Positions 1 through 20,355 of a DNA stretch of 64,000 nucleotides are shown in pieces. Source of the DNA: Octopus vulgaris (Eukaryota); contig OX597817.1 of assembly GCA_951406725.2 (NCBI GenBank), positions 79,608,001 to 79,672,000 of the forward strand, given 5' to 3'. Within the stretch, counting starts at the first letter, position 1. Every line of letters starts with the position of its first letter. The notes under the pieces are model-generated. The model saw nothing but the letters and a program-made list of their open reading frames with translations, had not been told where the DNA came from and did no database searches. Made by a program: the position numbers and the translations under genes.

Positions 1-144
1 ATAATCTTAGCTAATGTTCCTTTATAGAGTATTTTGTCTCAATTGTGACACATATGAGATTTTACCAATCACTCATGTTGTTGTTGTTGTTGTTGTTGCC
101 ATTATTCTTCTCCTTCTTCTTCTTCTCCTCTTTCTTCTTCAGCT

Positions 145-335
145 GTTGGTCAACTCTGATCAACCCCTATCTATCAGTAAAAGCCACCTAAGCTCCAATC
201 ATCCCAGCAGATAACAAATGTAGGATTGCATTATTCAATGTATCCTTCTCTTTTTTACGGCTGCGGTTTTTAAAGGAAGTTTAGCCGCTATTTCTAGCAG
301 ACCGGCAGATCATGTATAGGTCTTTCCATTGCCTT
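145..335. repeat. Old degenerate dispersed repeat; related fragments at ~650-760, 1640-1820, 3030-3370, 17300-17480, 31090-31245 and 53820-53965
   Basis: Recurring degenerate blocks resembling ggtca(a/g)ccctgatc..cagacc..tgatcaaa..attcc and tt(a/g)gc(c/t)gctatttctagca, found in both orientations. Recognised by eye; family unknown. Confidence 0.5.
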
Positions 336-3224
336 GACATACAATAAGGAACTGAGAACATAGATAATGTGTTCCATATGATATTACCTCACAAAAGCAC
401 ATCATTAGTCTTCTGGCATCATGATGTCTCATCATCATCATCATCATCATCATCATTTATTTTGGGGATTTCACTATTTGTGACATGAAGAATTCATCTC
501 AGCTTTTGAAGTTATGATGCCATCAAAAATTTTTAATGCAATATAGTATTAAGAATTGGGTGTACCCATTCCGTGACAGTTCTTTAATCTCTGCGAACCC
601 ATTTGTCGTTGTTTTTGTTGCTGTTGTTGCTGATGTTACTGCTGCTACTGTTGTTGGTCAACCCTGATCTAGCAGACCAGTAATCAAATAGCATTCCTGC
701 CATGCCCATCCCGACGTTTGTTTTCTGACATAGCCTGTGTGTCTAAGATTTAATATGTTGCTAAATGTATTATTTATATTAAGCAAGTAGTGTCTAGCAT
801 GAACTGAATGCAGTTTGCAGTAAATGTTAAGCCTTCAAAAATCATTATCTGCAATATTTACAGCGAAGATCTGAAACGATCCTAAGTACATTCTGACAAA
901 TTTCAATGCAGTATGTTAATCGCTGTTGTGTACGTCACAGAAGAACAACTCCTTTCTCTTAAGACGTCAATGTATTCATAACACACTCGGATTATTGGCG
1001 CAAGAGATTTTGGGACATCAGTGTTTCGACATCTGGTATCTCATTAGTCAGAATTATCCGGATCCCTTTAAGCCGAAACAAACCACTGGTTCTGCTTAGA
1101 ATTTTAGTGAATAAATGGTTTTCTGATCAATGCTAATATCTGCCAATCGATTAAAAATCATTATTTTCGCTGTATATAGCAAGATCTGAAACAAACACAT
1201 GACACATAGATCGAAAACGAACATATTGTCGAGGTAAAAGGGAGAAGTTGTTCTGTGACTTATACAACAATGACTAGCATATTTACATTAGAGAGTCTAT
1301 AGGAACGTATTAAAAATAAATATGCCAATCATCGTTTCAACAGAACAACGACGTAAGCAAGAAAATAATTCTAGAGATTTTTTTCTTTTTTGGCAGCAAT
1401 GAGAGATTACATTATTTAGAATGGGACTTGTGGATGTGGCAAAGTTGAAATAAGATGTGATATGTGTATATCCCGTGGACTTTGTAGGTGGAGCACAATT
1501 TGATAGTTGAGAAATGAGGAGAAACATTGTAGCAATGGTAAAAAAGTCGATGAGAGGTTAAATTAAGTATGTGTTTTAGTGGTTGCTTGGCTATTGTCCT
1601 CGCCATCGCTGTTATCGTTTACTTCAGGTCATCTGCGTTAATGAGAAGGTATGTTCTCAAACAGTATTGTATCTTTGACGATTCCATCGTTTTAGGGGAT
1701 CCGAGTACTACATTGTTGAAAGCATCACTTTCTTTTTTAATAAAGAAGGGTGTGACACGAGTAGATTTGACTGCTATTTATGGTGGATCTAGGGACCATC
1801 TAGAGACTCCTTCAGTGGCTCGAAGGTTACTAGTTGTAATGAGTTGAGTAGTTCTTAAGCAATTATCATATTTGTCTATGCATCATATAATTGTATATAA
1901 CATCAGAATACATCTCTAGTTTACGGAGCAGTACTCTAATCCGACTCACTATTTGGCCTTGTAGAGAGTTTGCAACTAAAGCCTGTTTTTGACCCTAAGG
2001 AAATTCCTCCCTAAAATATTCCTCACTTCCTTCTTAAAGTTTCAGATAATTTCATCTTCCTGGGGGATAGAGATCAATTTTGTTTCACCTTGCCAAATTT
2101 CCCTTGGGAGCCCTGCTTACTAACGAGAATATAATGAGTGACCTGGAGTAATGGCTGTTGTATCCAAAGATAATAGTGCGGTTCCAATAATGGGTTTGTT
2201 TACTGTGGAATTTTTAACCAACGGTGCTGCATTACATTGGTTAAGGTATGACCCAACCCAGTCAGCAATATCGGAGGATAAAGTAGTAAGGAAACACAAC
2301 GATGAACCAGTGAATCACGCGTTATGAGAACGTATCGCCTACAGGAAGATGCTATCCGGTAACAAAAGCCAACAGTGGTCAAAAATGTATACTCGAGTCA
2401 AACCAAATTAAAAATGAATATGTTATTTGGATTTTCATTGTTCTGTGGCTACCCTTTGATTTACAATATATTTTGTATACATTCGTACACATCAGCAGAC
2501 AATTTGTTGTAAATGTCTATAAACAAGAACTTGTGTTCTTGTAAGATTCTTCAGTCTGGCTTTGGATAAACTTTAACCGAAAATACTCACAATGAGGTCG
2601 AAACACTGCGATGTCTCAAAGAACATATATTGCCTAAATGGTACAGATGTTCTCTGATAGCGATACACACAATATGTGCAAAATACCCAGTGTCTTGAAC
2701 TTCCCTTACACCAGTGAATGATGAATCACATGTGCTATGAACACACATCGCCTAAAGTGTGGAACAGTTCTCCATTGGCGTAAACAATAACGATTAGATA
2801 TTCATGTTCAAGTCCATCAGAAATATTAACAATGAATAGATATGATAATAATGATAAAAACAGCATACAGAATACATCTCCAGAAGGATATTATAATGAG
2901 GACAGGTTAAATATTTAAGATAACTATAATTATGGTAGAGGGGATGATGATGAGAGAAATAAATATGATGAGTAATGCGCAATAGGAAAAGAAGAAAGAT
3001 AATACTCTTGGATTGTGGCTGTTGCTGTTGTTTAATTTTAAATCACATCTTATTGAATATATCTATGATCAAAGATATTCAAAACTGGAATATCTTTTAT
3101 TATTTGAAACAAAATTCTCGTTAAGTCTACAAGTTTATGGCGGAGAGCATTAAAAAGCTACCAAAAAGAAAGTAAGCAACAATGCAACAAACCTAACATT
3201 ATTTAATTTTATTTCAGTAGATAA

Positions 3225-3263
3225 CTCTGAAATGTTTTGGCCTTATGATGATCTCATCAGGGA
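3225..3263 (-). ncRNA. Degenerate minimal hammerhead ribozyme remnant (Penelope pLTR-like)
   Basis: Minus strand reads cc-CTGATGA-gatc-atcataa-ggcc-AAAA-catt-TC-agag. CUGAUGA is intact; GAAA and the stems carry mismatches. Confidence 0.4.
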
Positions 3264-3652
3264 ATATATTAGTTAACATGCACTAGCTATATTTAGTTTA
3301 GCAGGATGTTATTTGAGGGATATTGGTATTTTTCTAGCAATTTGAGGAACCATATAGCAGTTGGCCTTGCGATAAAGCAATTGATGATAATCTAAGCTGT
3401 AGTACTGGAGATAATCTCGACAAATACGATGATGATAGCGGTAGTTGGTGGCGGCGGCAGCGGTTGTAGTTGTAGTGGTGGTAGTGGTGGTGGTGGTAGT
3501 GGCGGTGGTGGCGGTGGTTGCAGTGGTGATTATGACGAGGAGTCGGAGGAGAATGGTATTAATGATGATGATTAGCTGTATAAGGGAAAAATAAAGACCT
3601 TCCTGTTTTTACCGAAAACGTAAGAAAAGAAAAAAAAAGAGATAAAAATACA

Positions 3653-3709
<57 letters not shown>

Positions 3710-4698
3710 TGTATGTGTGTATGGATGGATGGATGTATATATGTGTATGTGAGTAAGAATAAAATAGAAAAAAATTAAGTTTCAAAATAAGAAGCAACAA
3801 AAAGTAAAAACAAACATTTAAATAACATGAAGAAGGGAAAAAAGAAAAAAAAAAACAAACAAAAGATACTGACGACAACAACACAAAACATTAGCTAAAT
3901 AAAAATAATTGGTTTGTACAATAAAACCGAAATTAATTAACCAGAATATAAAAAGAGTTAACAAGGCGCTAAAAAAATATGAATAATGAATAAATAAATA
4001 GATAAATAAATAAACAAATAAAAATAAACGAAACAAACTTCTGCATTTATTTTATATTTTAATTATATTTATTTTATAATTTTATTTATTTACTTTTGGG
4101 GGGTGTTTTTATCTTTTTAGGTCTTTTTTGCTTTTATTAATTTTTTTTTCTTTTCCATTTTATTCTTTAATTCTTTGCCGCCGCTGTTGGTCTACCGCTC
4201 TATACGGTACCATCACACCACCATCATACACACATACAAACACTTCCCGAATCTTCTAGATACTCCAGCTACTTGTAATAATTTTTTTCTTTTTTCTTCC
4301 TTCATTTTTTTTTTTACTTCTTGCTTCTTGTTTATTTTTTTTTTACTCTCGGAGTTTCTTCAATTTCAAACTTCTTTTTTCACCGTATTCATCTTGACGT
4401 TTTTGTTTTCCTCCCCCCCCCCCCGCAGTCCTCTTCCTTATACTCTTACACGTTTACTATTCGACCCACCACTTCTCTGCTGCTTCTTCGTACTTCGGCA
4501 GGTGCTGCTGATACTGCTTTATACTGCAGTTGTTGGCGTTGCAGTTGTGAACATTCTCTTTGCAATCCATCCTTAACATACAAGCTAATAAAACACATTA
4601 GTTGCGAAACTAAATATTTAACGAGTTGAGTAAACACAAATAATATGGTTATGTAGGAGTATGTATGTGTGTGTATGCGTGTGTGAGTGTGTGTATGC

Positions 4699-4738
<40 letters not shown>

Positions 4739-4791
4739 TGGTATGTAGTAATCCATGTATATATAGGAACATGAATATGCACACATATGCT

Positions 4792-4857
<66 letters not shown>

Positions 4858-4929
4858 ATAAATTTAGGCTCAATACTTGATAAGTGTATGCACCTGTATA
4901 CGCCAGCTAGTAGCAGAGGTGAGAGGGTA

Positions 4930-5283
4930 TATGTATCAAATGAAATCAAAAACAGAACACAAAGGATGTCGCGGTAATTTATGTTGACTGGGGATACGGT
5001 ATGGACAGATTTTCGAAGTCCAATGATACCCTACACACCTATTTGGTTATGAAGGTTTACAAACATACTTTCTCAGTGAGACTCAATATAACAATCATTA
5101 TGGGCAACACCAAATGTACCTTTCATAATGTGATGTAAATCTTTGGTATAACAATTTCATGCGGCTGAAGAGAGCTTTAAACCATCCTTTATGTCGATTA
5201 TAGACTGATGTGAAAATAGGACGTTTATAAAGCTTGAAACACGTGTACCGCGACATCCTTTATGTTCTGTTTTTGATTTCATT

Positions 5284-5287
<4 letters not shown>
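4930..5287 (+). mobile_element. Short non-coding Penelope-like (pLTR-type) element with ~45-bp terminal inverted repeat and a hammerhead ribozyme
   Basis: tcaaatgaaatcaaaaacagaacacaaaggatgtcgcggta (~4936-4976) is the near-perfect reverse complement of taccgcgacatcctttatgttctgtttttgatttcatttga (5246-5286). It contains a hammerhead motif and abuts a long (TA)n tract. Confidence 0.7.
5161..5251 (+). ncRNA. Type I hammerhead ribozyme with palindromic stem III
   Basis: Stem I gcgg (5161-5164)/ccgc (5248-5251); core CTGAAGA 5165-5171; stem II gagcttta (5172-5179)/taaagctt (5228-5235); GAAA 5236-5239; palindrome ACACGTGT; GUA cleavage triplet ending at 5247. Confidence 0.85.
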
Positions 5288-5363
<76 letters not shown>

Positions 5364-5638
5364 GTATATATATATATATATACATATATATACATATATA
5401 TATATACGTGTATATATATATATACATACATACATATATATATATACATACATATATATATATATATATACATACATATATATATATATATACCTACATA
5501 TATATATATATATATATATACCTACATATATATATATACATACATATATACATATATATATACATATATATACATATATATATATATATATACATATATA
5601 TACATATATATATACATATATATATATATACACAAATA

Positions 5639-5670
<32 letters not shown>

Positions 5671-5757
5671 CATATATACATAATATATATACATATATAC
5701 ATATATACATACATATATACATACATATATACAAATACATATATATACATACATATA

Positions 5758-5788
<31 letters not shown>

Positions 5789-5790
5789 AC
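5287..5790. repeat. Long (TA)n/(TACA)n microsatellite
   Basis: About 500 bp of TA/TACA repeats. Similar tracts occur at 3661-3706, 4660-4856, 6020-6238, 35480-35652, 39940-40350, 54245-54460 and 59614-60046. Confidence 0.98.
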
Positions 5791-6020
5791 TCTTTACTCT
5801 TTTTCTCTCTTTTTACTTGTTTCAGTCATCTGACTGCGGCCATGCTGGAGCACCGCCTTTAGTCGAGCAACTTGACCCCGGGACTTATTCTTTGTAAGCC
5901 CAGTACTTATTCTATCGGTCTCTTTTGCCGAACCGCTAAGTGACGGGGACGTAAACACACCAGCATCAGTTGTCAAGCAATGCTAGGGGAACAAACACAG
6001 ACACACAAACATATTCACAC
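5789..6020 (-). mobile_element. SINE family B, 3' half only
   Basis: Reverse complement of the 3' half of the 15249-15622 element (gcttgacaac..cttagcggttcggcaaaagagaccgatag..ggcggtgctccagcatggccgcagtc..gaaacaagtaaaa). Confidence 0.85.
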
Positions 6021-6071
6021 ACACTTATATATATATACATATATACAACATATATACATACATATATATAT

Positions 6072-6102
<31 letters not shown>

Positions 6103-6822
6103 CATATATACATACATATATACATACATATATACATATATACATACATATATATATATATATACATATATACATACATATATATATATATATACATACA
6201 TATATATATATACATATATACATACATATATATATATGTAATTAAAATATTAAATTTAGAAAAATTAAAAGAAAAGTTTTTTTAAAAGAATATTTATATA
6301 GTGGCATTTTCCTTGTTTCTGCCTTTCTCTGTCTCTCTTGTTTACTCTTGTGGGTTCAAGGTCCATGTGAATTCTTGGTAGGGAAGAAGAAGGAGGAGGA
6401 GGAGGGGAGAAGGGGAGGAAGAATTTGGGATTGCCTTGATGGTCGTTGGTCAGTGGTTGCTAGCAGTTACTGTTGTTCAATTCATGAGAATATTTCTATT
6501 GAAAGGTTTGTTTATAGAATTTGCGTAGGTGTTATACTAAAAAGCATTAGTGATAAAGTCAGGAAGAAGAAGAAGAAGAAGAAGAAGAAGAAGAAGAAGA
6601 AGAAGAAGAAGAAGAAGAAGAAGAAGATGATGATGATGATGATGATGATGATGACGATGATGATAATGAAGAAGAAGAAGAGGAAAGAGAAGGGAGAATA
6701 TGAATGCGTGGAAGTTGTGGAATGTTGGATGACTTAAAGTTGGCACGTTGTGGGTTATAGCTGTGATTGGGGCTGATTTGTAATGGATTCTTAGGAATGT
6801 AATATTTGCCTGTGTATCTGTG

Positions 6823-8590
6823 TTATTCTAAAGCTGAGGTGGATATATCGTTTGTCGTAGATTCGTTCAGAAGGGGCCTGTATTTTGTAGTAAAGAGAGT
6901 TTCTTTACTTATTCGTTGGATCGAGGTTGTATCGTCCCTGAACTGGTAGAGGGGGAAAATCCTGAAGCTTGGAGTTTTGTCGTTGGCGCAAATATCTATG
7001 TGTTGGCTGAATGCTATTTTTCTGTTTTGGGGAATTTTTATCTGGGATCTGTGCAGGGCCATTCTTTTACGTAAACTATTTTTTGTTTGGCCTATGTATT
7101 GCTCTTGACACCCAGAGTAGGTTAGTGTGTATATCAGGTTCTCCGAAGCACATGTGAAGTTGCTTTTCACTGTGAACCGTTGTCCTTGTTTGAAGGAGAA
7201 CTCTGATCCCTCAATTAGATAATTGCATATCCCGCAATTGGGTCATCCACATTTTTTTACTGTCGGCTTCTGTGTTGATGAGTGAATTCGGGCTTGTGTT
7301 AGGAAACTTTTCATAGATTTAGGCTGTCTCTTGCTTTTTATGATCGTGTGTGTTTGGAGGATTAAGTTCATTCTGTGGTTTTTTTGTAGCAGGGGTATGT
7401 TTTGGAGGATGGTGTCGAAGGCTTCATTGTTGAGAGGGTTGTGTTTGGAGATGTATGGTAAGGCTTTTGGTCGTAAATTTTTCTTTAATTTGGGATGTCT
7501 GAGTTCCTAGATGTTGAGTTGAAGGGCACGTTGAATGCATATGTCAATTAGTGAAGGTAGGTAGTTCCTGGTGATGAGGGTATCTTTTAGTTCATGTAGT
7601 CGTGTGTCTCTGGTGTTTGCATTAGAAACTATAGTACATATCCTTTTTGTAGATTGAAGGGGATATTCATTCTGGTGTGTCTGGGGTGGCATGAATTGAA
7701 AGGAAGATATTGCTTAGAATCCGTAGGCTTGTAGTATATATCTGTTTCTATTACATTATTAGATTTCTTAATGAGGATGTCGAGGAAGAGGAGTTGTTGC
7801 TGGCTATATTCCATCGTGAATTGGATGTTTACGTCCAGTCCATTTAAAATTGCTTGGAATTCTTTGAGTTTCTCTATATTTTCATGCCAAAGAATGAAAC
7901 AGTCATCTAGGTATCTCTTCAAGTTGTTTTCTATGAAGAGGGAGAAAGGGCTGCCATATCTTTCTAGAACCTTACGATAAAGACTGATTTCTAGATACCC
8001 CATGACTAGGTTGGCAAAGGAGGGGGCCATTCGCAGTCCCCGATTTTTGTCGGTAGAATTTGTCTTTGAAGGTGAAGTAGTTATTTTCCAGGATGAATTT
8101 AACCCCTTCTATCACGAATTCTTTTTTTGATGTGACGTGGGAGTTCGTTGGCGTGATTCTCTAGCCAGAATTGAATTGCCTCTATTCCTAGGTTGTGGGG
8201 GATATTGGAATAGAGGTTGACTACATCGAAGGATACTAGTAGGGTGTTTTTGTTTATAGTATTAGGCAGGTGATTGAGCATATCCAGGTCGTCCCTTATA
8301 TAGCTTTTGACATGTTTGAGGAGTGGTTTTAAGAGGGTATCTAAAAAGTTACTCAGGCGGTGGGTTTCGCATACGGGACCTGCTATTATAGGTCTCAATT
8401 TGAGGTCATTAGGATTAGGAACTTTAATTATTTTGTCTGTGGTTATCTTGCATGCGTTACTTATTTTCTCACTTTTGTGTATCTTGGGAATACCTTAGAA
8501 TTGGCTAGTTTTACTTGGGAAATTGGTCATATAGTCATATTCTTTGTCGGTGAGCCCTTCTTTGTATGGGGCTAACATGGATTTTAGATC
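6823..8590 (-). pseudogene. Decayed PLE reverse transcriptase / GIY-YIG endonuclease
   Basis: RT motifs RPIIAG, LVSFDVVNLYSNIP, APSFANLVMGYLE, RYLDDCF, FLDILI and DIYYKPTDSKQYL; linker knuckle KKCG*PNCGIC; endonuclease NLIY..(Y)SGC.EQYIGQT...LRKRMALH...SQH...E. Split across frames, with stops. Confidence 0.93.
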
Positions 8591-9045
8591 CCTCATTATT
8601 TTTTGTTGACTGTAGTTTTCATCTTCTTCTTCTTCTTTTTCTTCTTCTTCTTCTTCTTCTTCTTCTTCTTCTTCTCCCCCCTCTTCTTCCTAACTTTATC
8701 ACTAATGCTTTTTAGTATAACACCTACGCAAATTCTATAAACAAACCTTTCAATAGAAATATTTTCATGAACTGAACAGCAGGAACTGCTAACAACCACT
8801 GACCAACGACAATCAAGGCAATCCCAAATTCTTCTTCCCCTTCTCCCCTCCTCCTCCTTCTTCTTCTTCTTCTTCTTCTCCTTCCCTACCAAGAATTCAC
8901 ATGGACCTTGAACCCACAAGAGTAAACAAGAGAGACAGAGAAAGGCAGAAACAAGGAAAATGCCTCTTATATTTGAACACTATATAAATATTCTTTTAAA
9001 AAAACTTTTCTTTTAAATTTTCTAAATTTAATTTTTTAATTGTTA

Positions 9046-9082
9046 CAGTTGAAAAGGTCTCAAATGACCGAAACCGGTACTG
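9046..9082 (+). ncRNA. Minimal hammerhead-like motif with variant core in the PLE pLTR
   Basis: cag-TTGAAAA-ggtc-tcaaat-gacc-GAAA-ccgg-TA-ctg. Stems I and II, the palindrome ACCGGT and the GUA site are intact; the core is UUGAAAA rather than CUGANGA. Confidence 0.7.
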
Positions 9083-9130
9083 AAATGTTCTTTATAAAAT
9101 TATTTTAGCATTTTCTATCTTGACTTGTTT

Positions 9131-9172
<42 letters not shown>

Positions 9173-9540
9173 TTCTTTGGTTCTCTGACACGTTTCCAAT
9201 AGTCTCGCTCTCTACAGTAATGCTGCACTAACATGGATAATTTGAATAACAATTTTGCATGATGACTCCATGATCGTACTTCATTTGACATGAGTCAGTC
9301 AGTAGAGAGTAGTCTGGCTTAAATCTCATCACCATCGTAATTTATACATCATTACATAAAGTACAAAGAACTTCTTATCTCCTGTAATGTACCAGACTAC
9401 AACTACAGACAAATATCACCATTTATCGCATATGCAGCGATGATAAACTATTGTCATTTATGTAATATTGCTTACAGTTTGAATCACTAGAGCTAAAAAT
9501 ATACATGTACCTATATTTTAACACAACAGCTTATCTTCAG

Positions 9541-9702
9541 GAGTCGAAATCAAGTTAACTGATCGCTGAGGTAGTGTGTTTTATCGATGCTGGATAAATA
9601 GAACAACATTCACTCACACGGATGGTATCTAGAGGAACAATACAAGGAGCACACTGCTAACAACCTCAAGAAGTGGTATACCGAACGTATGCACACTCTC
9701 AG
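9541..9702 (+). other. Candidate non-coding exon
   Basis: Acceptor cttatcttcag| at 9540 and consensus donor CAG|gtaagt at 9702 bracket 162 bp. All three frames have stops. Motif evidence only. Confidence 0.2.
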
Positions 9703-12056
9703 GTAAGTCTGCATGTCTGCATAAACTCTACCCTCCTGTCACGATTTATCAGGACTCTCAGTGATCCATAATACTTATAATTGTATGTATGTATACATGC
9801 AATTTTGTATGTGTGTGTGTATGAGTGTGTGTTTGTAGTGCGTTCGAGAACGCTAAGGCCAGCGTGATATAGATATTCATGGAATTGTGCTCACATAAAT
9901 GAGAACTTATATTGAAGCTTCTTCATCTTGGCAGTAACTTCATGGGTATAATGCTAGCTATAAGAACGATCCTCGACCAGCGGTTATGCAAGTGAAAAGG
10001 CAGATAAACACAAGTAGACTTAATTAGTATATATATATGGAGTGCAGCATGTAGTATACGAAATAAAAAACGGCAAAATAAACGAAATTAGATGATCCTT
10101 TTATTCTGAAAGTTGTCGTGGGTGAATTCTGACTTTTTCCATAGCTACGTTCATTACATGATAAGGACTCACAATGTCGGAGGTGTTAGAAATAACTCAA
10201 ATTCGTATGAATCTGTTAGACCAGGCTAAGCAAACCTCATTGGAAGAAGGTGGCTAACAGCTTTTATACATATATAGCAAAGGTTTCAAAACTCATGTTG
10301 TTTTCTCCTTGAAACAGGAAGAAATTCTAGGAGGCTGTTATTTACATATGAAATACATAGTCTCTTTCATAAAAAGCGCAAGCATTTCCGTTCTTGTGTT
10401 CAGACCGTTTGTGCCTAGAACCAAAATTCTCAATGTTTCGCTTATTCTATATTTGAAGCTACCATTTCTGTATGACTCTGTCTTATCTACAATCAACCAG
10501 GTATTTTTAAGTTCAGGACGATATGTCTCACATAAGAACCATATAAATTTCAACAAATCTATAGCATATTCTTTTATAAGGGCTGAAAAATGTATGTTTG
10601 GGCTTATAGGATCGATTTTTAAACGTTAATTCTGTTGCCCTAGTATATATTTTAACCTCATCTCAGTTACTTATTCCCACTTTAGTGCTTTACATTATTG
10701 AATTTGCCTAACAGTTACCATCAAGTGGGCAGCTCTCATTGATTCTAAAGTTACATGACCGTTAGTGACATGCTGCCTGCCTCTTCTTTTCATTCAACTG
10801 ATATAATAAGCGAAATTCTAACAAGTCGAATAATTAACCTTAAAACATTTCCTATTTAATATCTTTCTATACTTTTGCCATAGCGGAAAATGACTACCTT
10901 TTAAGTTAAGAAGTTCCTAGCTACATTAGTTCTGTATACTAGATCACATATTGGATGGTAACAAAATGTTCCTTTTTTCTTTTCTTACGCTGTGCTTCCT
11001 TTTTTTTTCTTTTTACGTACCTAATCTTATCCGAGAGCCCGCTATTTCATAGCGCTTCATTATAATATCCAACTGTTCTCAAATAATAATCTTCATCGAA
11101 AGATATCAAAGATATTGGTTTACTAACGTTGCCAACCAAGTTCTTCAAGATACATGATAGGTGATGCGATAGTCCCCTGTACGTACATTAAATTCTCATT
11201 TACTATGTCGAATGGTTTCAAACTCTCATTTTACAGTTTCATGTGCTGTGTGTGTGTGTGCATTGATTTTGGCATTGTATTGCAGTATGAGTATGGATTG
11301 CATAATTAATTTTTACGTGTGGATACTGACATTAACGTTCAATGGTCAAAAATTTGACCGCAACAAACAAATCAACACGTGACTCCAGAGGTATGGTGCT
11401 AACGGTCAGAAAACCTTTTGCGGGAAAGTCTACACGAATTCAAACTGCATAAAAAAACTACACAAACGGTCTATAGATTCAATTCTTGAAAATTAGTCTT
11501 TGAAAGTCTGGAAACATCGAATATAATTTAGGAACATCATTGTTCCAAATCAACTTAAAAAGATTAAAAATATTAAGATGTAAAATATTAAAGATAAAAC
11601 TTGAGTACCGTCATATATTTAATGAAGTATGTATAAGTATGTATAAAAGCGTTTTGTCCCTTTCATATGTACACATACATACATGCACATATAATCCATA
11701 TACAGATACAAGACTGGATTTAAACCAATGGGGCCCGGGGCACTTCAAGTTTGGTGGACCATTCATATACAAGAATTAAGATCTTGGAAAATTACCAAAT
11801 TTGTATCTCAAAACCCATCTATTTCATGTAATTGAATTGGATGAATTAGCAGAGAAAGTTTAAATAATGATTGAAATGTCGCTTCTAGGTACACTTTTCA
11901 AAATTCAAAATTTCGATTTTCTCACATGCATTTGCAGCATTTGACTTTTCTTTCATTGTGAAAAGTACAAAGAAGTGGGGAAGAGTTACAAAAGAGTTAA
12001 TGCGAGTTGGAAATGTTTCAGAATGTGAAATAACGTGACAGAAAATTACGAAATAA

Positions 12057-12286
12057 GGCGGCGAGCTGGCAGAAACGTTAGCACGCCGGGCGAAATGCTG
12101 AGCGGTATTTCGTCTGCCGTTACGCTGTGAGTTCAAATTCCGCCGAGGTGGACTTTGCCTTTCATCCTTTCAGGGTCGATAAATTAAGTACCAATTACGC
12201 ACTGGGGTCGATGTAATCGACTTAATCCCTTTGTCTGTCCTTGTTTGTCCCCTCTATGTTTAGCCCCTTGTGGGCAATAAAAAAAA
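12057..12286 (+). mobile_element. SINE family A (tRNA-derived, Nin/Deu-like core), full length with tail A
   Basis: Head ggcgagctggcagaa..gagttcaaattcc (A/B-box-like); core gcctttcatcctttc.gggtcgataaattaagtacc; tail tagccccttgtgggcaataaa; TSD agaaaattacgaaa at 12040-12053 and 12287-12300. Confidence 0.92.
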
Positions 12287-12570
12287 AGAAAATTACGAAA
12301 AAGAAAACAATCATTTTTGTGGTTATTGCTGTTCCAAACGCACGATGTGTGTGTGTTTGTGTGTGTCTGTGTGTTTGTGTGTGTGTATGTATGTTTGTGT
12401 GCGTGTGTGTGAGGGGTGGGTGAAGACATCAACATTTAAAAGACATGGATTCTTCTTCTTTTAAAACGGCCTCCCTTCATTGTTTTGCAATACGTGAAAA
12501 AAAGTGGGGAGAAATCTTGATAAAAACAGGAAAATTCAAACAGCTATTTCTGCTTTTCCAGTTTCCAGTA

Positions 12571-13489
12571 GGGGTAGGTGGGCACAGTGAGTAATATTTA
12601 CGGTATTTTTGACTTTGAAAAACAAATAATTTTCACAAATGTTCACTACCTTGCAAAAACTATATCAGCAAAGTAAAGACCCCTAAATGCAGTAAAACCT
12701 ATAATATATTCAGAACGTTATTCCAGAAAATTATCACTCTTCTTTTTGTGCATATGAAAGACAAAACTAGGTGGGGCAAAATGAGTAAGACAAGATGAAG
12801 TAAATTTGTTTTTATTTCTCTTGAATTTCATTTGAAAAAAGATTCATACACGTAAACATCCACCCTTAGACACCAGAAAGATCAGAAAAGCAACAAAGAG
12901 TTTTAAATATCTAGGTCAAATGAAAGCGAATCATGGAAAAATAGCACGATATGAAATGAATGAAATCTAACTAAATCTAAAAACTCAATATAAAATATTC
13001 TCTTTGGCTTTTTCATGATCTGCTGGAGTAGCTTTCTTCCATGCATATTTATGAACTATGTGGTTAAAGAGAGGTAATTACTAAAATTAGTCATTACTCA
13101 TTTTGCTCTAATTTAGACTTTCTTTTTAAAGCTTGAAGATTATCGAATTAGATATTTGTTTGGAAAAAAAATTGTGCAGAATCAAACAGAATATTGATGG
13201 TTAGACATCGAAAATTATCCAGATATTTTATTAGTAACTTCAATTACAATCAAGTCAAATTTGGAGAAAAATTTCTTGTAACGAAAAAGTACCTGTCACT
13301 TATGTTTCAAACGCTCAGCTTCAACAACAACTATATAAGTTATACTGACCAATTCTTACTCCCAACGATGATGCAATGGTATAAAATGGGGATGCAATAA
13401 TTGCAATAATTCTAAACAGGTAGGGAGAAAATAACAAGAAATCAGAAATTATTCATTTTGACCTAGTAACCAATTTTGCTCCACTTCCA
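12571..13489. mobile_element. Degenerate non-autonomous DNA transposon (MITE-like) with GGGG..GGGGCAAAATGAGTAA-type terminal and subterminal inverted repeats
   Basis: ta|ggggtaggtgggcacagtgagtaa at 12571 and ggtggggcaaaatgagtaa at ~12771, versus ttactcattttgctc at ~13094 and aaccaattttgctccacttcca|ta ending at 13489. Confidence 0.55.
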
Positions 13490-15075
13490 TATGGTAATTT
13501 CAAGTGTTTGACAGAATGACGGAAACTATAGGGGAAAATAAGAAAGTAAAACGATTCGTTTAAATGAAAAACATTTGAATACATATGCAATAATTCTAAA
13601 CCGAAAAAGAATGCTTTTAGCTGTTGAGAGATATAATTTTATAATTAAAACTAAATTCAAAATTTAAATTTTGGAACATTTTCTTACTTGTTTCATAAAA
13701 TAAGACCAGTTTTCAATACCTCACTGAAATAAGTTCAGAAGCAGAAATGTGCATGTGTGTGTGGGGGGTGATGTGTGTGTGTGTGTGTGTGTGGGTGATG
13801 TGTGTGTGTGCGTGTTTATGTGCGTGTGTGTGCTTGTAACTGTGATCAGTTAAGGCAATATATTACAAGTCAATGTGATATCCTGGTGAGGGAGTTTGTG
13901 CTGGTACAGTTAGATGCAGGGGCCCGGGAACAGAAGGTGCAGGTGGTACACTTGCATCCACTAAAAATTTTCAGAGGTGCAAAATGAAAATTTATACCCC
14001 TACATACTTTACCAGGTCTAGAAAATAGTGTCTAGAAGTTGGTCTGTAAAAAGTTGTTTGAACTTAGGTTTCTTCTCAAAGCAAGAACAAAGGACAAAAA
14101 TAAAAAAAAGTCCAAAATGCTTACTGATGAAACTGGTCATAAAATTCCCAAGGGAATTCTCTTGAAAGATATACTACTGAACTAAAGCATCATCAACAGC
14201 TAAATAGATAACAGCTAAATAGCCCTTAAATCAGAAATTAAATCACAAATAACTTTTTATTTTACATAGTAATATGAATTCACATGTGTAGAATACAAAT
14301 TCGCAAAAATTTTCGGAAAATTCCAAAAACTAGAAAAATTTATGAGATGCTATATGGGATACTTAAGGATACCTGGCTCTTTTTCCTGATGCATTTATGC
14401 ACCATACAGTTAAAAAGATTTGTGAAATTAGTTATAACTCATTTTGCCCCGTGTAGATACTAGTTTTGGAAAATTGAAAATTATCAAATTAGACATTAGT
14501 GTGAGAAAAAGTTGACTTGCAGCCCAACAGAGGAAAGAATTTGGATTGATGAACAGCCAAAATTATCTAGATATTTTTTTAGCAACCTTAATTACAACTG
14601 GGTCAAAGTTGAGGAGAAATGTTTTGAAAATAAAGTACCTATTACAAAACGGTTTCAAACTGCCTCAACTGCAACTACAACGGTAGTGGCCGATGTTTAC
14701 TCCCAAACATGATGGTAGAGGACAAACTGGTGATGCAATTCTTTCAATGTAATGGTGTCAGACAAGTAGTGAGAAAATAAGAAGAAACTGATAACTCATT
14801 TTGCCCAAGTTACCAACTTTGCCCCAATTCCCTGGAGTTATTTCAAGTATTTGCCTAAATGACGAAAAAATATTGAAAAAGAAAGACAGAAAATAGTGAA
14901 CAAGAAAGAAAGAAAATGATTCGGTTTAATGAAAATATGTGAGCATAAAAACGATAATCCTAAAATGCTTTGAGCTGTTGAGAGATGTAATTTCATAATT
15001 AAAACTAAATTTAAAATTTTAATTTTGGAACATATATACAATAAGATCAGTTTTCAATGCCTCAGTGAAATAATG
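13040..15075 (+). repeat. Diverged ~700-bp direct duplication (13040-13735 vs ~14380-15075)
   Basis: Collinear shared blocks (actcattttgc, aaaattatc.agatatttt, aaagtacct, ataattaaaactaaatt.aaaattt.aattttggaacat, cctca.tgaaataa). Each copy is followed by a (TG)n tract. Confidence 0.8.
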
Positions 15076-15248
15076 AAGTATACAATGGCAATGTATGTGT
15101 ATACTTATTTGCGTGTGAGTGTGTGTGTGTGTGTGTGTTTGTGTGTGTGTTTGTGTGTGTGTGCGTGTGTGTGTTTAATGGCCAGTCGTCAATCTAAGAT
15201 CGTTGTGCTCAGTCATGTATTGAAAGAAAGAATTTGAACTAGAGATAA

Positions 15249-15622
15249 TAGCTTGCTTATCAACCACATGGTTCCGGGTTCAGTTCCACTGCGTAGCACC
15301 ATGTGCAAGTGTCTTCTACTATAGCCTCGGGCCGACCAAAGCCTTGTGAGTGGATTTGGTAGACGGAAATTGAAAGAAGCCCGTCGTATATATGTATATG
15401 TATATATGTGCGTGTGTCTGTGTTTGTCCGCCTCAACATCGCTTGACAACCGATGCTGGTGTATTTACGTCCCCGTAACTTAGCGGTTCGGCAAAATAGA
15501 CCGATAGAATAAGCACTAGGCTTACAAAGAATAAATCCTGGGGTCTATTGGCTCGACTAAAGGCGGTGCTCCAGCATGGCCACAGTCAAATTACTGAAAC
15601 AAGTAAAAGAGTAAAAGAGTAA
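15249..15622 (+). mobile_element. SINE family B (tRNA-like head, CORE-like block, internal TA/TG microsatellite, (GTAAAAGA)n tail)
   Basis: aaccacatggttccgggttcag..gcaagtgtcttctactatagcctcgggccgaccaaagccttgtgagtggatttggtagacgg..microsatellite..gaaacaagtaaaagagtaaaagagta; multiple homologous copies in the window. Confidence 0.9.
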
Positions 15623-15998
15623 ATCTCTTTATCTCTATATACATCCATACTCTCTCTCACACACACACGCAAACACACATACACAAACACACACTCACAG
15701 ATGTCCCAAAAGGAACTACAATTAATTCCCATGAGAATTGCGACCGCTTTGGGAATGTTTTTTATTTGAATGAACTGATGTCACTAATGTAGTAAAAACT
15801 GGTTATTTATCAAAAGAGAGGGGTCCATTACATTTTATAAGATATGCTTGTTGAAGGAGAGCCTCTGCATGCAAGATTGCTGAGAGGTAGGGGGCCCTAT
15901 ATTGTGTGCTACATACTCTTCATAGCAGGAGGGCTCTATATCCGTGAATGCCCAGGGAAATTGCCCTCTTCGATCCCCTATAAATCCAGCTCTGTGCG

Positions 15999-16032
<34 letters not shown>

Positions 16033-16225
16033 CATGTAGCTGAAATTTACAGAAAAACAAAAGACGAAGATAGGTGTATGAACAACAAGCAGGTGAATTA
16101 GTTTGACGCTCGGGAAAGTGAAAAAGTCTTTTATGTTTCGAGCCTACGTTCTTCAACAAAAAGGAATAGGAAAAAATATACAGAGAGAACAAAAAACTTG
16201 TGGATTTAGCGATCAAGCATGGCGA
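16033..16225 (-). mobile_element. Short microsatellite-embedded repeat with a decayed hammerhead-like motif (possible PLE pLTR fragment)
   Basis: Unique sequence between (TA)n and (TG)n. Minus strand 16157-16126 reads gTTGAAGAacgtaggctcGAAAcataaaagac. Confidence 0.3.
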
Positions 16226-16229
16226 TTGG

Positions 16230-16275
<46 letters not shown>

Positions 16276-16329
16276 TATGTATGTATGTATGTATGTATGT
16301 ATGTATGTATGTATGTACATTTCTACATA

Positions 16330-16838
16330 CAGTGATCCTTCGTTTATCGCGGTAGATTGGTTCCGAGACCGGCCGCGATAACTGAATTTCCGCGAAGTAG
16401 GGACAACATATTTACAGTATTTATTTAAGGTGTATTTTGACTTTTAAAACCCTCCCTGTACTGTTAACAACCCACCCATTACAGTAGTCTATTAATAACA
16501 AGGACAACTGCTAAGCAATAACACTTTAGATTTTAAAAAATAAAGATCGTTACTTTTACACAGGCCAGATTACAAAATAGAAAGCTGCGATTCGTCGTCT
16601 CTCTCCATTGCACAAATCACAGCCCGTCTTAAGTTCAAATACCCCTGTATATGCTTTTTTGCTATTTTACGATTGTTTTGTTGTTCCGAGACTAGGAAAT
16701 AACATTTATTATTATTTTAATGAAATTAAATGAAAAATTTTAGGCGTTCATATATATATATTTATATATATATATTTATAAAATCCGCGAATTCGTGAAT
16801 CCGCGATAGTTGAACCGCGAAGTAGCGAGCGATCACTG
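16330..16838. mobile_element. Tigger/pogo-type MITE
   Basis: TA|cagtgatccttcgtttatcgcgg ... ccgcgaagtagcgagcgatcactg|TA. Imperfect TIRs starting CAGT, TA target duplication, subterminal ccgcga repeats. Confidence 0.9.
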
Positions 16839-18459
16839 TATATTCTCTTCTACAGTTTAGTTTTCGAGCTGATTTCAACAAAATGTTGATACTGCAGTAA
16901 GATATTTTTTTATTATATTCTTTATTTATGATTATTGTGGTGAATGTTTAAGCCTTATTAATATTACTTTTTATCTAAATCTTCTGATCACGAATAAAAT
17001 CGCTGATAATGTAATTTCTTCTTAAACTTCATTGTTTTTATATCTTTTATCTAGTTCTCTTTGAAGTTGCGAAAAATTTACATTTCTCATTTCAATAACT
17101 GATTGAAAATTTTCCCTAAAACTGTTTCCTTTTTTTTTTGTTCGTAAACTTTTAAACTTGTTGAAAAAAATTAAGAAAGTATGATACCAGAAATAATTAA
17201 TTTCTTAAAAAATGAAAATAAACAGAGAAGCTAATATGAAATACATCACAATCATTGTTAACTTGATATAATAGCAAAATAAGATTTCAGGATCTTTTTA
17301 TTGAGATAAATAGCAGCCAAAGCTAGACAAGTGATACACATCTAAACAAAATAGTGAAATTTCCTCAAATCACACACTTGTGTCACAAGGAAGGCCAATC
17401 TGAAAAGATGAGATGGTTATGACTGAAACATCTTCGATGATAGATTTGTTTAATGAGGAGTGAGCGGAGGTAAAACAATATCAGGGAATTTTCCATCCAA
17501 ATATACATTGCTGTATTATAGAATGAGGAATATTATTGGATAATGCATTCCTAGATATGCTATGTCCGATGAAAAAAGAGAAAGGAATGGAAATGTATTT
17601 TATGATAGATATCCTATATTAGTGTTTTTTGTTTCATGAAAAATGAAATAAAAAGGACAGTTTGAACTTTAGGCTATAAGGTGTAATCTACGAATAAATA
17701 TCTTCATGAGGATTACGGAAATTATAAAAGGGCGTCATTTTCAGTTGTGTGGCAGAATCTACTCCAAAGACATAGCCTACGGTATTACAACTGTTGTAAT
17801 AACAATGCTGGGAAGTAGGTGACGAAAACAAAAGGTAGGTGATGAAAACAACACAAAAAACAAGCATCAAAAAGTAACTAAGATTGAATGACGAACTAAA
17901 TGTTTTGTGCACCAGCCTCCCTCTCTTATCAATTCCAATGTCTCCCATAGGCGTGATGGTCTGAGGATTGTAAAAGAAGCACGAACGTATTGTCATAATT
18001 AGTGAAATTAGGATGTTTTTAAATTTTTGAAACTTATCCAAAACCATAATAAACAGATACAAACTCTGTTTTGTTTACTCATTAATAAAGAAGAAATTAG
18101 CGCAGAAGTTTATTAATATTTAATGAGTGGACTGTTATTTATCAGTCTGAGAACCATAGAACTATCCTACTTTTGTCACGCAATCATTTATTCCATTGCA
18201 CCTTAAAAAGCATTGTGGTTATTCTCATTATTGCATTTTTGTAGTTCTCAGTTATTAATGACCAGCAGATCTATTCTATATTAGTAATCACCGATCGAAC
18301 AGGTGAAATGCATAACTTTGTAATTTTAGTAGTTAAATAGTCAACCCTGATAGAGTAGTGTTATAGCATTTGGCAGTTGAACGGCTAGACGTAATTTATA
18401 TCGATACGGCTTTCAAATTAGCAGTTGTTATACTTAACTGTGCTTTATATGATAGAAAT

Positions 18460-18930
18460 ATATTAGCAGAATTGTGAGAGGGTTGGACAAGATACTTTGA
18501 AATACTTTTACTGAGTCGTCATGTTCTGAGTTCAAAACTAACTTAGCCTTTCCTCCTTCTGGAGTCAATAAGCAAAAATCACAACAAGGATGTAGGATTA
18601 GCCGAATGATTATAGATATGAAGAAAGTACCTTATAGTATTTATTTCGGTTCTTTAAATTCTAAGGTAAAATCGTATCGAGTTCGATGTTGTCTTTTATC
18701 CTTCCAGTGTCAATAAAATAAAGTAGCAGTCAAGGGGTATGGGTTGACAAAATTGCCAGGGAATTGGACAAAATGCTTTGCATCGGACTTTTTATATTCT
18801 AGGTTCAAATCCACCCCGGGTTAATATTGCCTTTTATCCTCTCAAGATCAATAAAATAAAGAATCAATGGATTGGTAGAATTGTTAAAGCAGCTAGACTT
18901 ATGATATTCCGATACTTTATGGTCTGAGCT
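18460..18930 (+). mobile_element. Cluster of 3-4 old, highly diverged SINE-A-like copies in tandem
   Basis: Repeated degenerate ttctg/aggttcaaa..cttttatcctt..gtcaataaaataaag motifs. Confidence 0.6.
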
Positions 18931-20355
18931 CCCTGGTAGATGTGCCTCACTTACCTATATCTAACCCATCAGTATCGTTTAAAAATATAAGAAGGCAAAT
19001 AAGGGGGAAATACCTTTGAGTTCACCTCCGAAAATTCTATGACAAGCATACAGTGTTTCTCAAAGAAGTCACTAAAGGGTAGTTTCATTTGTTGACGTTA
19101 TGGCTTTCAAAGAAAGTATTATCTTCTTTCATGTTGTGGCTAGGCATCAGGGAAATGCGAAACTGTCTCTATGGCACTAGTAATGAGGTACATCATTACG
19201 TTGTTTGTGCAATAAACATTACGAGTCATAGCGTAGAAGTTTGTAATTGAGTTCTGCTTTAAGCAAATGGAACCATTTTATTTCATTATTATGTTTAAAT
19301 GATATTTTACCTATTTTGTTTAAGAGAGAGAGAGGGAAAGCGAAAGGAGGAGACGGAAAGAAATTTTGTAAGATTTGCAGGGTTATTGAGATGGATCATG
19401 GTCAGATGATTGGTTTGTAGCTTGGACATCTATAAGTTTCTGTCTGCAGGAAAAAATGTTGGCTGAGACGGAGGGAGTACATTAAATTAGGACGAAGGAT
19501 TGTATGAAGTGGTTAATTCGTAGTAATGGTAATAGAAAGGAACATAGATGAGATGAAGGATCGTAGATGGAGGCAATATGCAATTAATTATTTCGAATGA
19601 GTAGAGGTCTTTTTAGTAGCACCAGAAAAGATTTGCCATGCCTAATCCGAAGAAATTTGAAATTATGATAGAGAAAAGTAAAAGAAAATACACAGAAAAT
19701 ATTATATCAAGAATATATAAATAAACTAATAAATGGAAACATCTTTGCGACATCACTGATTCCATCTCGGTGTTGACAAACAAGGATCGTTTCTACTTGA
19801 TTATTATCACTACCCTCAATGCTATTATCATCATTATCATCATCTTCTTTAGTCATCACTTCATTCCTTCTCTTCATGTCTATCAGCATCCTTACAATCA
19901 TTGTCGATGCTATCATCATTCTCCCAATCACCGTTATCATTTCCTATGTTCCACTCAGCTTTTCAACGTCACAAGATGACTGCAATGGTATCTTCCTCAT
20001 TGTAATCACAACCATCTTCCTTCCTATTTTTCTTTTCCTCCTTCTCGCCCCCAATACTTTTGGTTGTCAGTGCAACCATCGCTATCCCCGTGATCATTAT
20101 TACTCCCATCAACACCAACACCTGCTACTCAACACTCAGCTCCTTCACCTCCCAATTCATAATATCGAAATATTTTGTCATCGCCACCCCCATCTCTTCT
20201 TCCACTAATTCTACTGCTGCAAGAATTTTTAATGAAACGATAATCATTGGAACAAAAGCGCTACTTAATGACAGGTGTAATCACAGAGGTAATAACAACA
20301 ACAATAATAATAGTAAGGATTATTGTTATTATAATTATTATTATTATTATCATTA

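Follow-up and report, generated by a model that had tools for sequence, protein, structure and literature searches.

A known plan of Penelope-like element (PLE) copies comprises an inverted, 5'-truncated copy and a tail at one end (PMC8557442, PMC3846280). For the EN+ PLEs of the Hydra clade, the description in PMC8557442 gives a reverse transcriptase (RT) followed by a C-terminal GIY-YIG endonuclease (EN), the motifs DKT, RWK, CxCX5C and CxxC/CxH, a hammerhead in the pLTR, insertion into (TA)n, a size generally below 3 kb and a tail of 30-40 nt. Penelope elements of Adineta are reported with inverted pLTRs, a tail, an initiator-like TCACT in the pLTR, and solo pLTRs that are ascribed to recombination or deletion (PMC3846280), and an internal pLTR promoter with a DPE was described for Drosophila Penelope (PMC2377424). 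In the Anolis Penelope/Poseidon element PAc, two internal start sites of reverse transcription bound the tail downstream of a hammerhead that overlaps the start codon, targets are AT-rich, and uncut RNA was the main template in vitro (PMC11167929). PLE hammerheads of the type with a palindromic stem III were described as showing no cleavage as monomers and low cleavage as dimers (PMC4209133). Non-LTR retrozymes, which are defined by tandem units (bioRxiv 10.64898/2026.07.22.740005), are likewise described with a type I hammerhead, a palindromic stem III, a unit of a few hundred nt and an origin from PLE pLTRs (bioRxiv 10.64898/2026.07.22.740005; PMC4209133).

The element analyzed here is located in a 64,000-nt stretch of the Octopus vulgaris genome (the window). 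With a probability of roughly 0.85, it is the 5'-truncated hammerhead pLTR of a coding PLE, likely of the Hydra clade, which stands head-to-head with a shorter, tailed inverted copy whose end beside the predicted ribozyme cut is likely due to chance. The octopus elements share with the Hydra clade the domain order, the sequence motifs, the pLTR hammerhead, the (TA)n insertion, the inverted 5'-truncated copy and the one-end tail, but they are longer (~4.4 kb, including a 3' UTR that is long and rich in microsatellites), have a tail of ~75-80 nt, carry RWA instead of RWK in two of the three families detected, and contain an Asn-rich linker. As in PAc, two internal 3' end positions bound the tail downstream of the hammerhead, targets are AT-rich and the template apparently was uncut, whereas the predicted cut in the octopus elements lies 186-198 nt upstream of the ATG. 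The inverted pLTR, the tail, the solo pLTRs and the initiator-like TCACT have their counterparts in Adineta, and the DPE-like motif has one in the Drosophila Penelope promoter. The features named above for non-LTR retrozymes recur as well, but no head-to-tail arrays were seen, and the octopus copies lie dispersed, either singly or as head-to-head pairs, and pass into a coding parent. A literature search retrieved no paper on the three families; the supplements of published surveys may list them.

Structure of the window element

The element and its surroundings consist of the following parts:

4855-4976, minus strand: inverted 5'-truncated arm with tail, extending to the distal 3' end (~122 nt; BLAST; 83% to the corresponding part of copy L395, see below)
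4855-4933, minus strand: Penelope "tail", the ~75-80 nt between two preferred 3' ends, present on the inverted arm only (by comparison with other copies)
4975-4979, no strand: head-to-head junction; the extra nucleotides 4975-4976 belong to the arm or are a mutated start of the forward copy
4977/4980-5288, plus strand: forward copy, a pLTR segment that spans from roughly the upstream hot spot of 5' ends to the proximal 3' end
5003-5007, plus strand: DPE-like GGACA, +28 relative to the initiator-like TCA(+1)CTC found in longer copies at the junction position (putative function)
5289-5790, no strand: (TA)n-type microsatellite, by its sequence the likely insertion target

In the initial annotation the element spanned 4930-5287 and began with an inverted end reaching to within 2 nt of the predicted cut. 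Positions 4934-4976 are indeed an inverted copy of 5246-5288 (42/43 identical, E = 1.7e-15, BLAST), and at the start of the arm two nucleotides (TA) precede the CCGCG that follows the predicted cut. The arm as a whole, however, measures ~122 nt instead of 43, so that the left boundary has to be moved to ~4855, and the forward copy, too, turned out to be 5'-truncated, the complete element being much longer. The annotated lack of a real ORF was borne out: no stop-to-stop frame of at least 120 aa is contained within the element, and frames overlapping its right end continue into the TA repeat. The forward copy shows 85-91% identity to 41 other genomic matches, with two at 80-84%. The tail sequence, with which the 5' UTR ahead of the ATG begins in full-length copies, is missing at the right end of the window copy, yet these 75-80 nt follow many other copies. 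A TA repeat similar to that on the right is also found to the left of 4855, and no target duplication is discernible. Beyond the right-hand repeat, a short dispersed repeat (5792-6010), which we take to resemble a SINE, is situated between TA tracts and adjoins many of the fetched loci.

The hammerhead motif

The forward copy contains a type I hammerhead, which had been annotated as complete and was found to be genuine, with all stems, the core and the palindrome located:

5160-5252, plus strand: type I hammerhead with palindromic stem III (predicted double-hammerhead fold; predicted cut after A5247)
5160-5164/5248-5252, plus strand: stem I, 5 bp
5165-5171, plus strand: core CTGAAGA
5172-5179/5228-5235, plus strand: stem II, 8 bp including one G-U, with a structured loop of 48 nt
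5236-5239, plus strand: GAAA
5239-5246, plus strand: stem III palindrome ACACGTGT

A hammerhead descriptor matched once in the window and not at all in 60 dinucleotide shuffles of it (both strands); the motif at 5160-5252 was missed by an Rfam scan of positions 1-20000, which reported nothing there at E<=1. Folding predictions for the motif on its own contain stem I and stem II, with pair probabilities of 0.97 and 0.88; the probability of stem I falls to 0.005 in the context of 4977-5288 and to 0.0 when the inverted arm is added. Two copies are predicted to join through the palindrome into a double hammerhead of -51.3 kcal/mol, 11.7 lower than the -39.6 kcal/mol of two monomers. Among the three families the sequences of stems I and II differ but their pairing is kept, and stem III always is palindromic (CACGTG, CATATG, CAATTG/CGATCG), a pattern of variation which argues that the motif is under selection.

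The coding parent and two related families

When the octopus genome itself (2.8 Gb) was searched with the DNA sequence, 1214 candidates emerged, 40 of which were scored, and long matches mostly had identities of 84-91%. Two exact patterns of the window family matched 192 and 194 times in the genome. The first 30 loci were biased toward copies spanning the query and were excluded from all end statistics. Walking upstream through longer copies led to L106, where a broken ORF with RT and GIY-YIG is followed by a microsatellite- and pyrimidine-rich 3' UTR of ~1.5 kb and then by a window-type element with hammerhead and tail, in front of which an inverted copy of its own 3' part is located. The same linkage of EN to element was found in L105 and L095. 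In the near-complete copy L395, a window-type element and tail precede an ORF that has its ATG at +186 from the cut and is 75% identical to the intact ORF of a sister family over residues 3-402. The forward copy of the window aligns to the 3' end of L106 (80%) and to the 5' pLTR of L395 (78%); the annotated interpretation as a non-autonomous PLE derivative or retrozyme-like element thus was correct in the relationship to Penelope but wrong in assuming a separate element, since alignment to the 3' end of an autonomous PLE had been named in the initial annotation as refuting it.

The sister family, which is younger and 83% identical in the RT piece, was found by a protein search. Its intact copy L224 carries direct 5' and 3' pLTRs (2315-2784/6708-7156) with homologous hammerhead and tail and an 836-aa ORF. 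L224 is located at G000:C11:64235700-64245600, and the family has 1591 exact pattern matches in the genome and several open ORFs of 818-850 codons; judged from their sequences, young loci of this family including L224 are candidates for active elements. A third family (1145 pattern matches) shows 56-59% identity and the same plan. Its loci L311-L322 contain internal pLTR repeats of ~100 nt and a fold-back hot spot within the loop of hammerhead stem II.

The features of EN+ PLEs were recovered as follows: a single ORF with RT and C-terminal GIY-YIG in L106, L395 and the sister ORF (by motifs and Atlas look-alikes), the 3' end also ahead of the ORF in L395 of the window family and in L224 of the sister, and a hammerhead in the pLTR of all three families. 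Pfam returned nothing for four pieces of L106 and a single irrelevant, weak match for the sister ORF, and a PDB sequence search with the sister ORF gave 0 matches. Atlas neighbors of the ORF at 0.95-0.98 include clusters in which 26-50% of the members have GIY-YIG. These partially GIY-YIG look-alikes and the motifs point to a putative RT/EN identity of the ORF.

By eye, the ORFs of L106 and L224 have a CxCX5C linker and CxxC plus CxH near the end of EN, and lack CCHH. DKT replaces DKG in L224, L395 and L311; RWK is found in the third family and RWA in the window family and the sister. Insertion into (TA)n was seen, not counted, in the flanks of several copies. Since all these characters match the description in PMC8557442, the three families likely belong to the Hydra clade. 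Asn-rich insertions between RT and EN occur in L106 (oriented positions 3200-4100) and L311 and resemble those of rotifer Penelopes (PMC3846280). One copy is part of a multi-kb block that is duplicated at 95-98% on C1, C21, C35, C36 and C44, and a third-family copy is nested in the 3' UTR microsatellite of this duplicated copy (loci L091, L097, L098, L110, L065-L073). The octopus genome thus harbors three abundant families, likely of the Hydra clade and two of them with long open ORFs, which are a tractable set for studying the role of pLTR hammerheads and the origin of solo and inverted pLTRs.

Copy architecture and a proposed insertion model

For sampling, a pattern immediately 3' of the cut was used, which also captures short copies. 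In the window family, the loci of the first 100 of 194 matches contributed 99 distinct copies. In each of the two other families, 70 loci were taken from the first 100 matches (out of 1591 in the sister and 1145 in the third family). They contributed 89 sister copies, with about a dozen listed rows left out, and 90 third-family copies, the final five loci of the third family having been picked as pairs. The end positions derive from BLAST chains against natural copies and may be off by a few bases.

The 3' ends were bimodal in the window family, with 55 short, 42 long and 2 in between (n = 99), and in the sister, with 39 and 50 (n = 89). Of 66 records of arms that have an inverted partner, 63 show the tail on one arm and not on the other (two families; pairs with both arms sampled count twice), and the junction overlaps of inverted pairs mostly were 3 nt or less either way. 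In the mechanism that we propose, the parent protein would nick (TA)n DNA and prime reverse transcription at two internal start sites bounding the tail. The two cDNAs would stop at different places and then be joined with little or no microhomology. The template would usually be left uncut by its own ribozyme, which by prediction requires either a second copy, through the palindromic stem III, or the help of a protein.

Copy ends at the predicted cleavage site

The inversion breakpoint of the window element had been interpreted as the record of a self-cleaved RNA end. Mapping of breakpoints relative to the GUA site does not support this, as the ends are scattered among copies and no pile-up at the cut was found in any of the three families. 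Within -4..+5 of the cut, 5' ends were observed in 6/99 copies of the window family (against an expectation of 2.8 based on the next 100 nt, P = 0.065), 0/89 of the sister and 2/90 of the third family, pooled 8/278 against 6.0 expected from local density (P = 0.26). The six near-cut ends of the window family were called at +5, +5, -1 (the window copy), -3, -3 and -4, none of them at +1. The remaining ~93/99 copies have no end near the cut and most of them read through it, and the starts of partner arms range from +89 to -282. Given this scatter among related copies, the arm end beside the predicted cut in the window likely is a coincidence, and the cut site is at most mildly favored as a copy end.

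It is nevertheless conceivable, although unlikely, that the inverted arm of the window copy was copied from the 3' self-cleavage product, as a minority of copies may be. The arm ends only 2 nt from the cut, and the near-cut ends of the window family amount to about twice the local rate, which would accommodate a small cleavage-derived fraction. Copying of a cleaved template would end at 4974. The two bases beyond agree with the uncut sequence, although one or both of them may instead belong to a mutated start of the forward copy. Against such a template stand the lack of any of the six ends at +1 as called, the counts in the two other families with the pooled P value, and the anole element, for which PMC11167929 describes a lack of reads beginning or ending at the cut. 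A breakpoint recording self-cleavage would have provided in vivo evidence for cutting of the transposition template by a Penelope hammerhead, but the census of copies lends this no support.

Upstream 5' ends

A pile-up of 5' ends was observed ~280 nt upstream of the cut in the window family: of 30 copies that reach -256, 22 terminate by -295, whereas 5.0 would be expected from the rate closer to the 3' end, and just 8/99 copies extend further. In the sister, 18/68 copies end between -196 and -220 (2.4 expected), with the mode at -211/-212. These stretches were chosen post hoc, and the corresponding P values near 1e-11 are optimistic. The mode of the sister is the A of TCATTC, with GGACG at +27; the window family has TCACTC, and two out of three reference copies have GGACG or GGATG at +28, the remaining one having GAACA. 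The initiator-like and DPE-like calls are based on consensus sequences that we take to be those of the initiator and the DPE. The forward copy of the window starts inside the upstream hot spot.

The pile-ups suggest, tentatively and with a probability that we place somewhat below one half, that the commonest short copies are run-off cDNAs of an uncut 5' pLTR transcript, which would start at the initiator/DPE ~280 nt (in the sister, 211) upstream of the cut; the protein would prime in the tail immediately 3' of the hammerhead, and reverse transcription would pass the ribozyme and proceed to the 5' end of the RNA. A competing explanation, to which we would also give close to an even chance, is that the ends arise from hairpin fold-back or stalling of the reverse transcriptase instead of an RNA start. 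Hairpins are predicted at both hot spots (6-7 bp in the window family, weaker in the sister), and palindromes at inverted junctions were read as self-priming in Adineta (PMC3846280). The third family also bears on this, as a start site predicted for it in advance at -135 failed (4 ends versus 5.3 expected), and its strongest pile-up (16 ends at -44..-62, 14 of them in inverted junctions) sits on a hairpin; a weaker one at -444..-470 (9/25 of the remaining copies) was identified post hoc outside the stretch originally scanned. On the other hand, fold-back does not readily account for the 16/22 ends of the window-family pile-up that have no inverted partner, the few copies beyond it, or the position of the sister mode on the A of TCATTC. 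Very small local inversions or fold-backs mark the upstream hot spot in several copies (L002, L004, L018 and L029).

A literature search retrieved no paper in which copy ends map a PLE start site, and the parts available of the Adineta and Drosophila accounts (PMC3846280, PMC2377424) contain no promoter-start pile-up. If the short copies were indeed run-off cDNAs, genomic copy ends would map transcription starts and promoters of PLEs, solo pLTRs would be explained without recombination, and the hammerhead would be mostly off in transposing RNA in vivo.

Retrozyme and MITE identities

The dominance of copies of ~310/390 nt, the commonest class as reflected in the upstream pile-up, also raises the question of whether this unit is a self-propagating, non-autonomous retrozyme- or SINE-like derivative mobilized by the PLE protein. 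In a tree of 82 window-family copies (52 short and 30 long), ORF-linked copies were found on both sides of the window copy but none in its own small sub-branch, where the nearest copies (~90-91%) all are short. The short copies cluster, with at least 13 short/long label changes compared with a mean of 24.9 for shuffled labels. However, 8 of these changes are forced by well-supported branches, many sub-branches contain short copies together with long and ORF-linked ones, and the long copies were sampled with a biased query, which alone makes the labels cluster. Neither the spread of the 5' ends over 40 nt nor the lack of same-strand repetition of the hammerhead region (0 pairs in 175 partly overlapping loci and 0 in 85 pattern loci) fits a self-propagating unit, which we regard as decidedly improbable. 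A stand-alone retrozyme was rejected on account of the lack of tandem arrays in the sampled loci and the continuity of the element with a coding PLE. Contigs of runs guessed to be RNA cover parts of both elements with no back-joint listed; contigs cannot show RNA ends and speak neither for nor against a circular RNA.

Taken alone, the window copy also resembles a MITE that inserted at TA and has terminal inverted repeats of 43 bp. This identity is negligibly probable, as the arms are unequal (122 versus 43 nt), arm length varies among copies, and just 3/42 long matches of the own-genome search span both arms. Fixed terminal inverted repeats at both ends were not found in most copies, and the copy ends together with the continuity of the element body with the RT ORF refute a MITE. 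The window element, with its real motif and known architecture, is an ordinary Penelope insertion.

A second Penelope-like insertion

A second, different Penelope-like insertion occupies positions 6240-9137 of the window on the minus strand. It contains a broken RT (7632-8494) and a GIY-YIG domain (6826-7242; Pfam E = 1.9e-4), and its 3' part (6240-6633) is found inverted at 8619-9041 with 89% identity. The inverted arm leads into a minimal hammerhead at ~9046-9082 that has a U3-A8 core variant (Rfam HH9, E = 0.31), a type described in PMC4209133. The breakpoint of this insertion is located far from its hammerhead cut.
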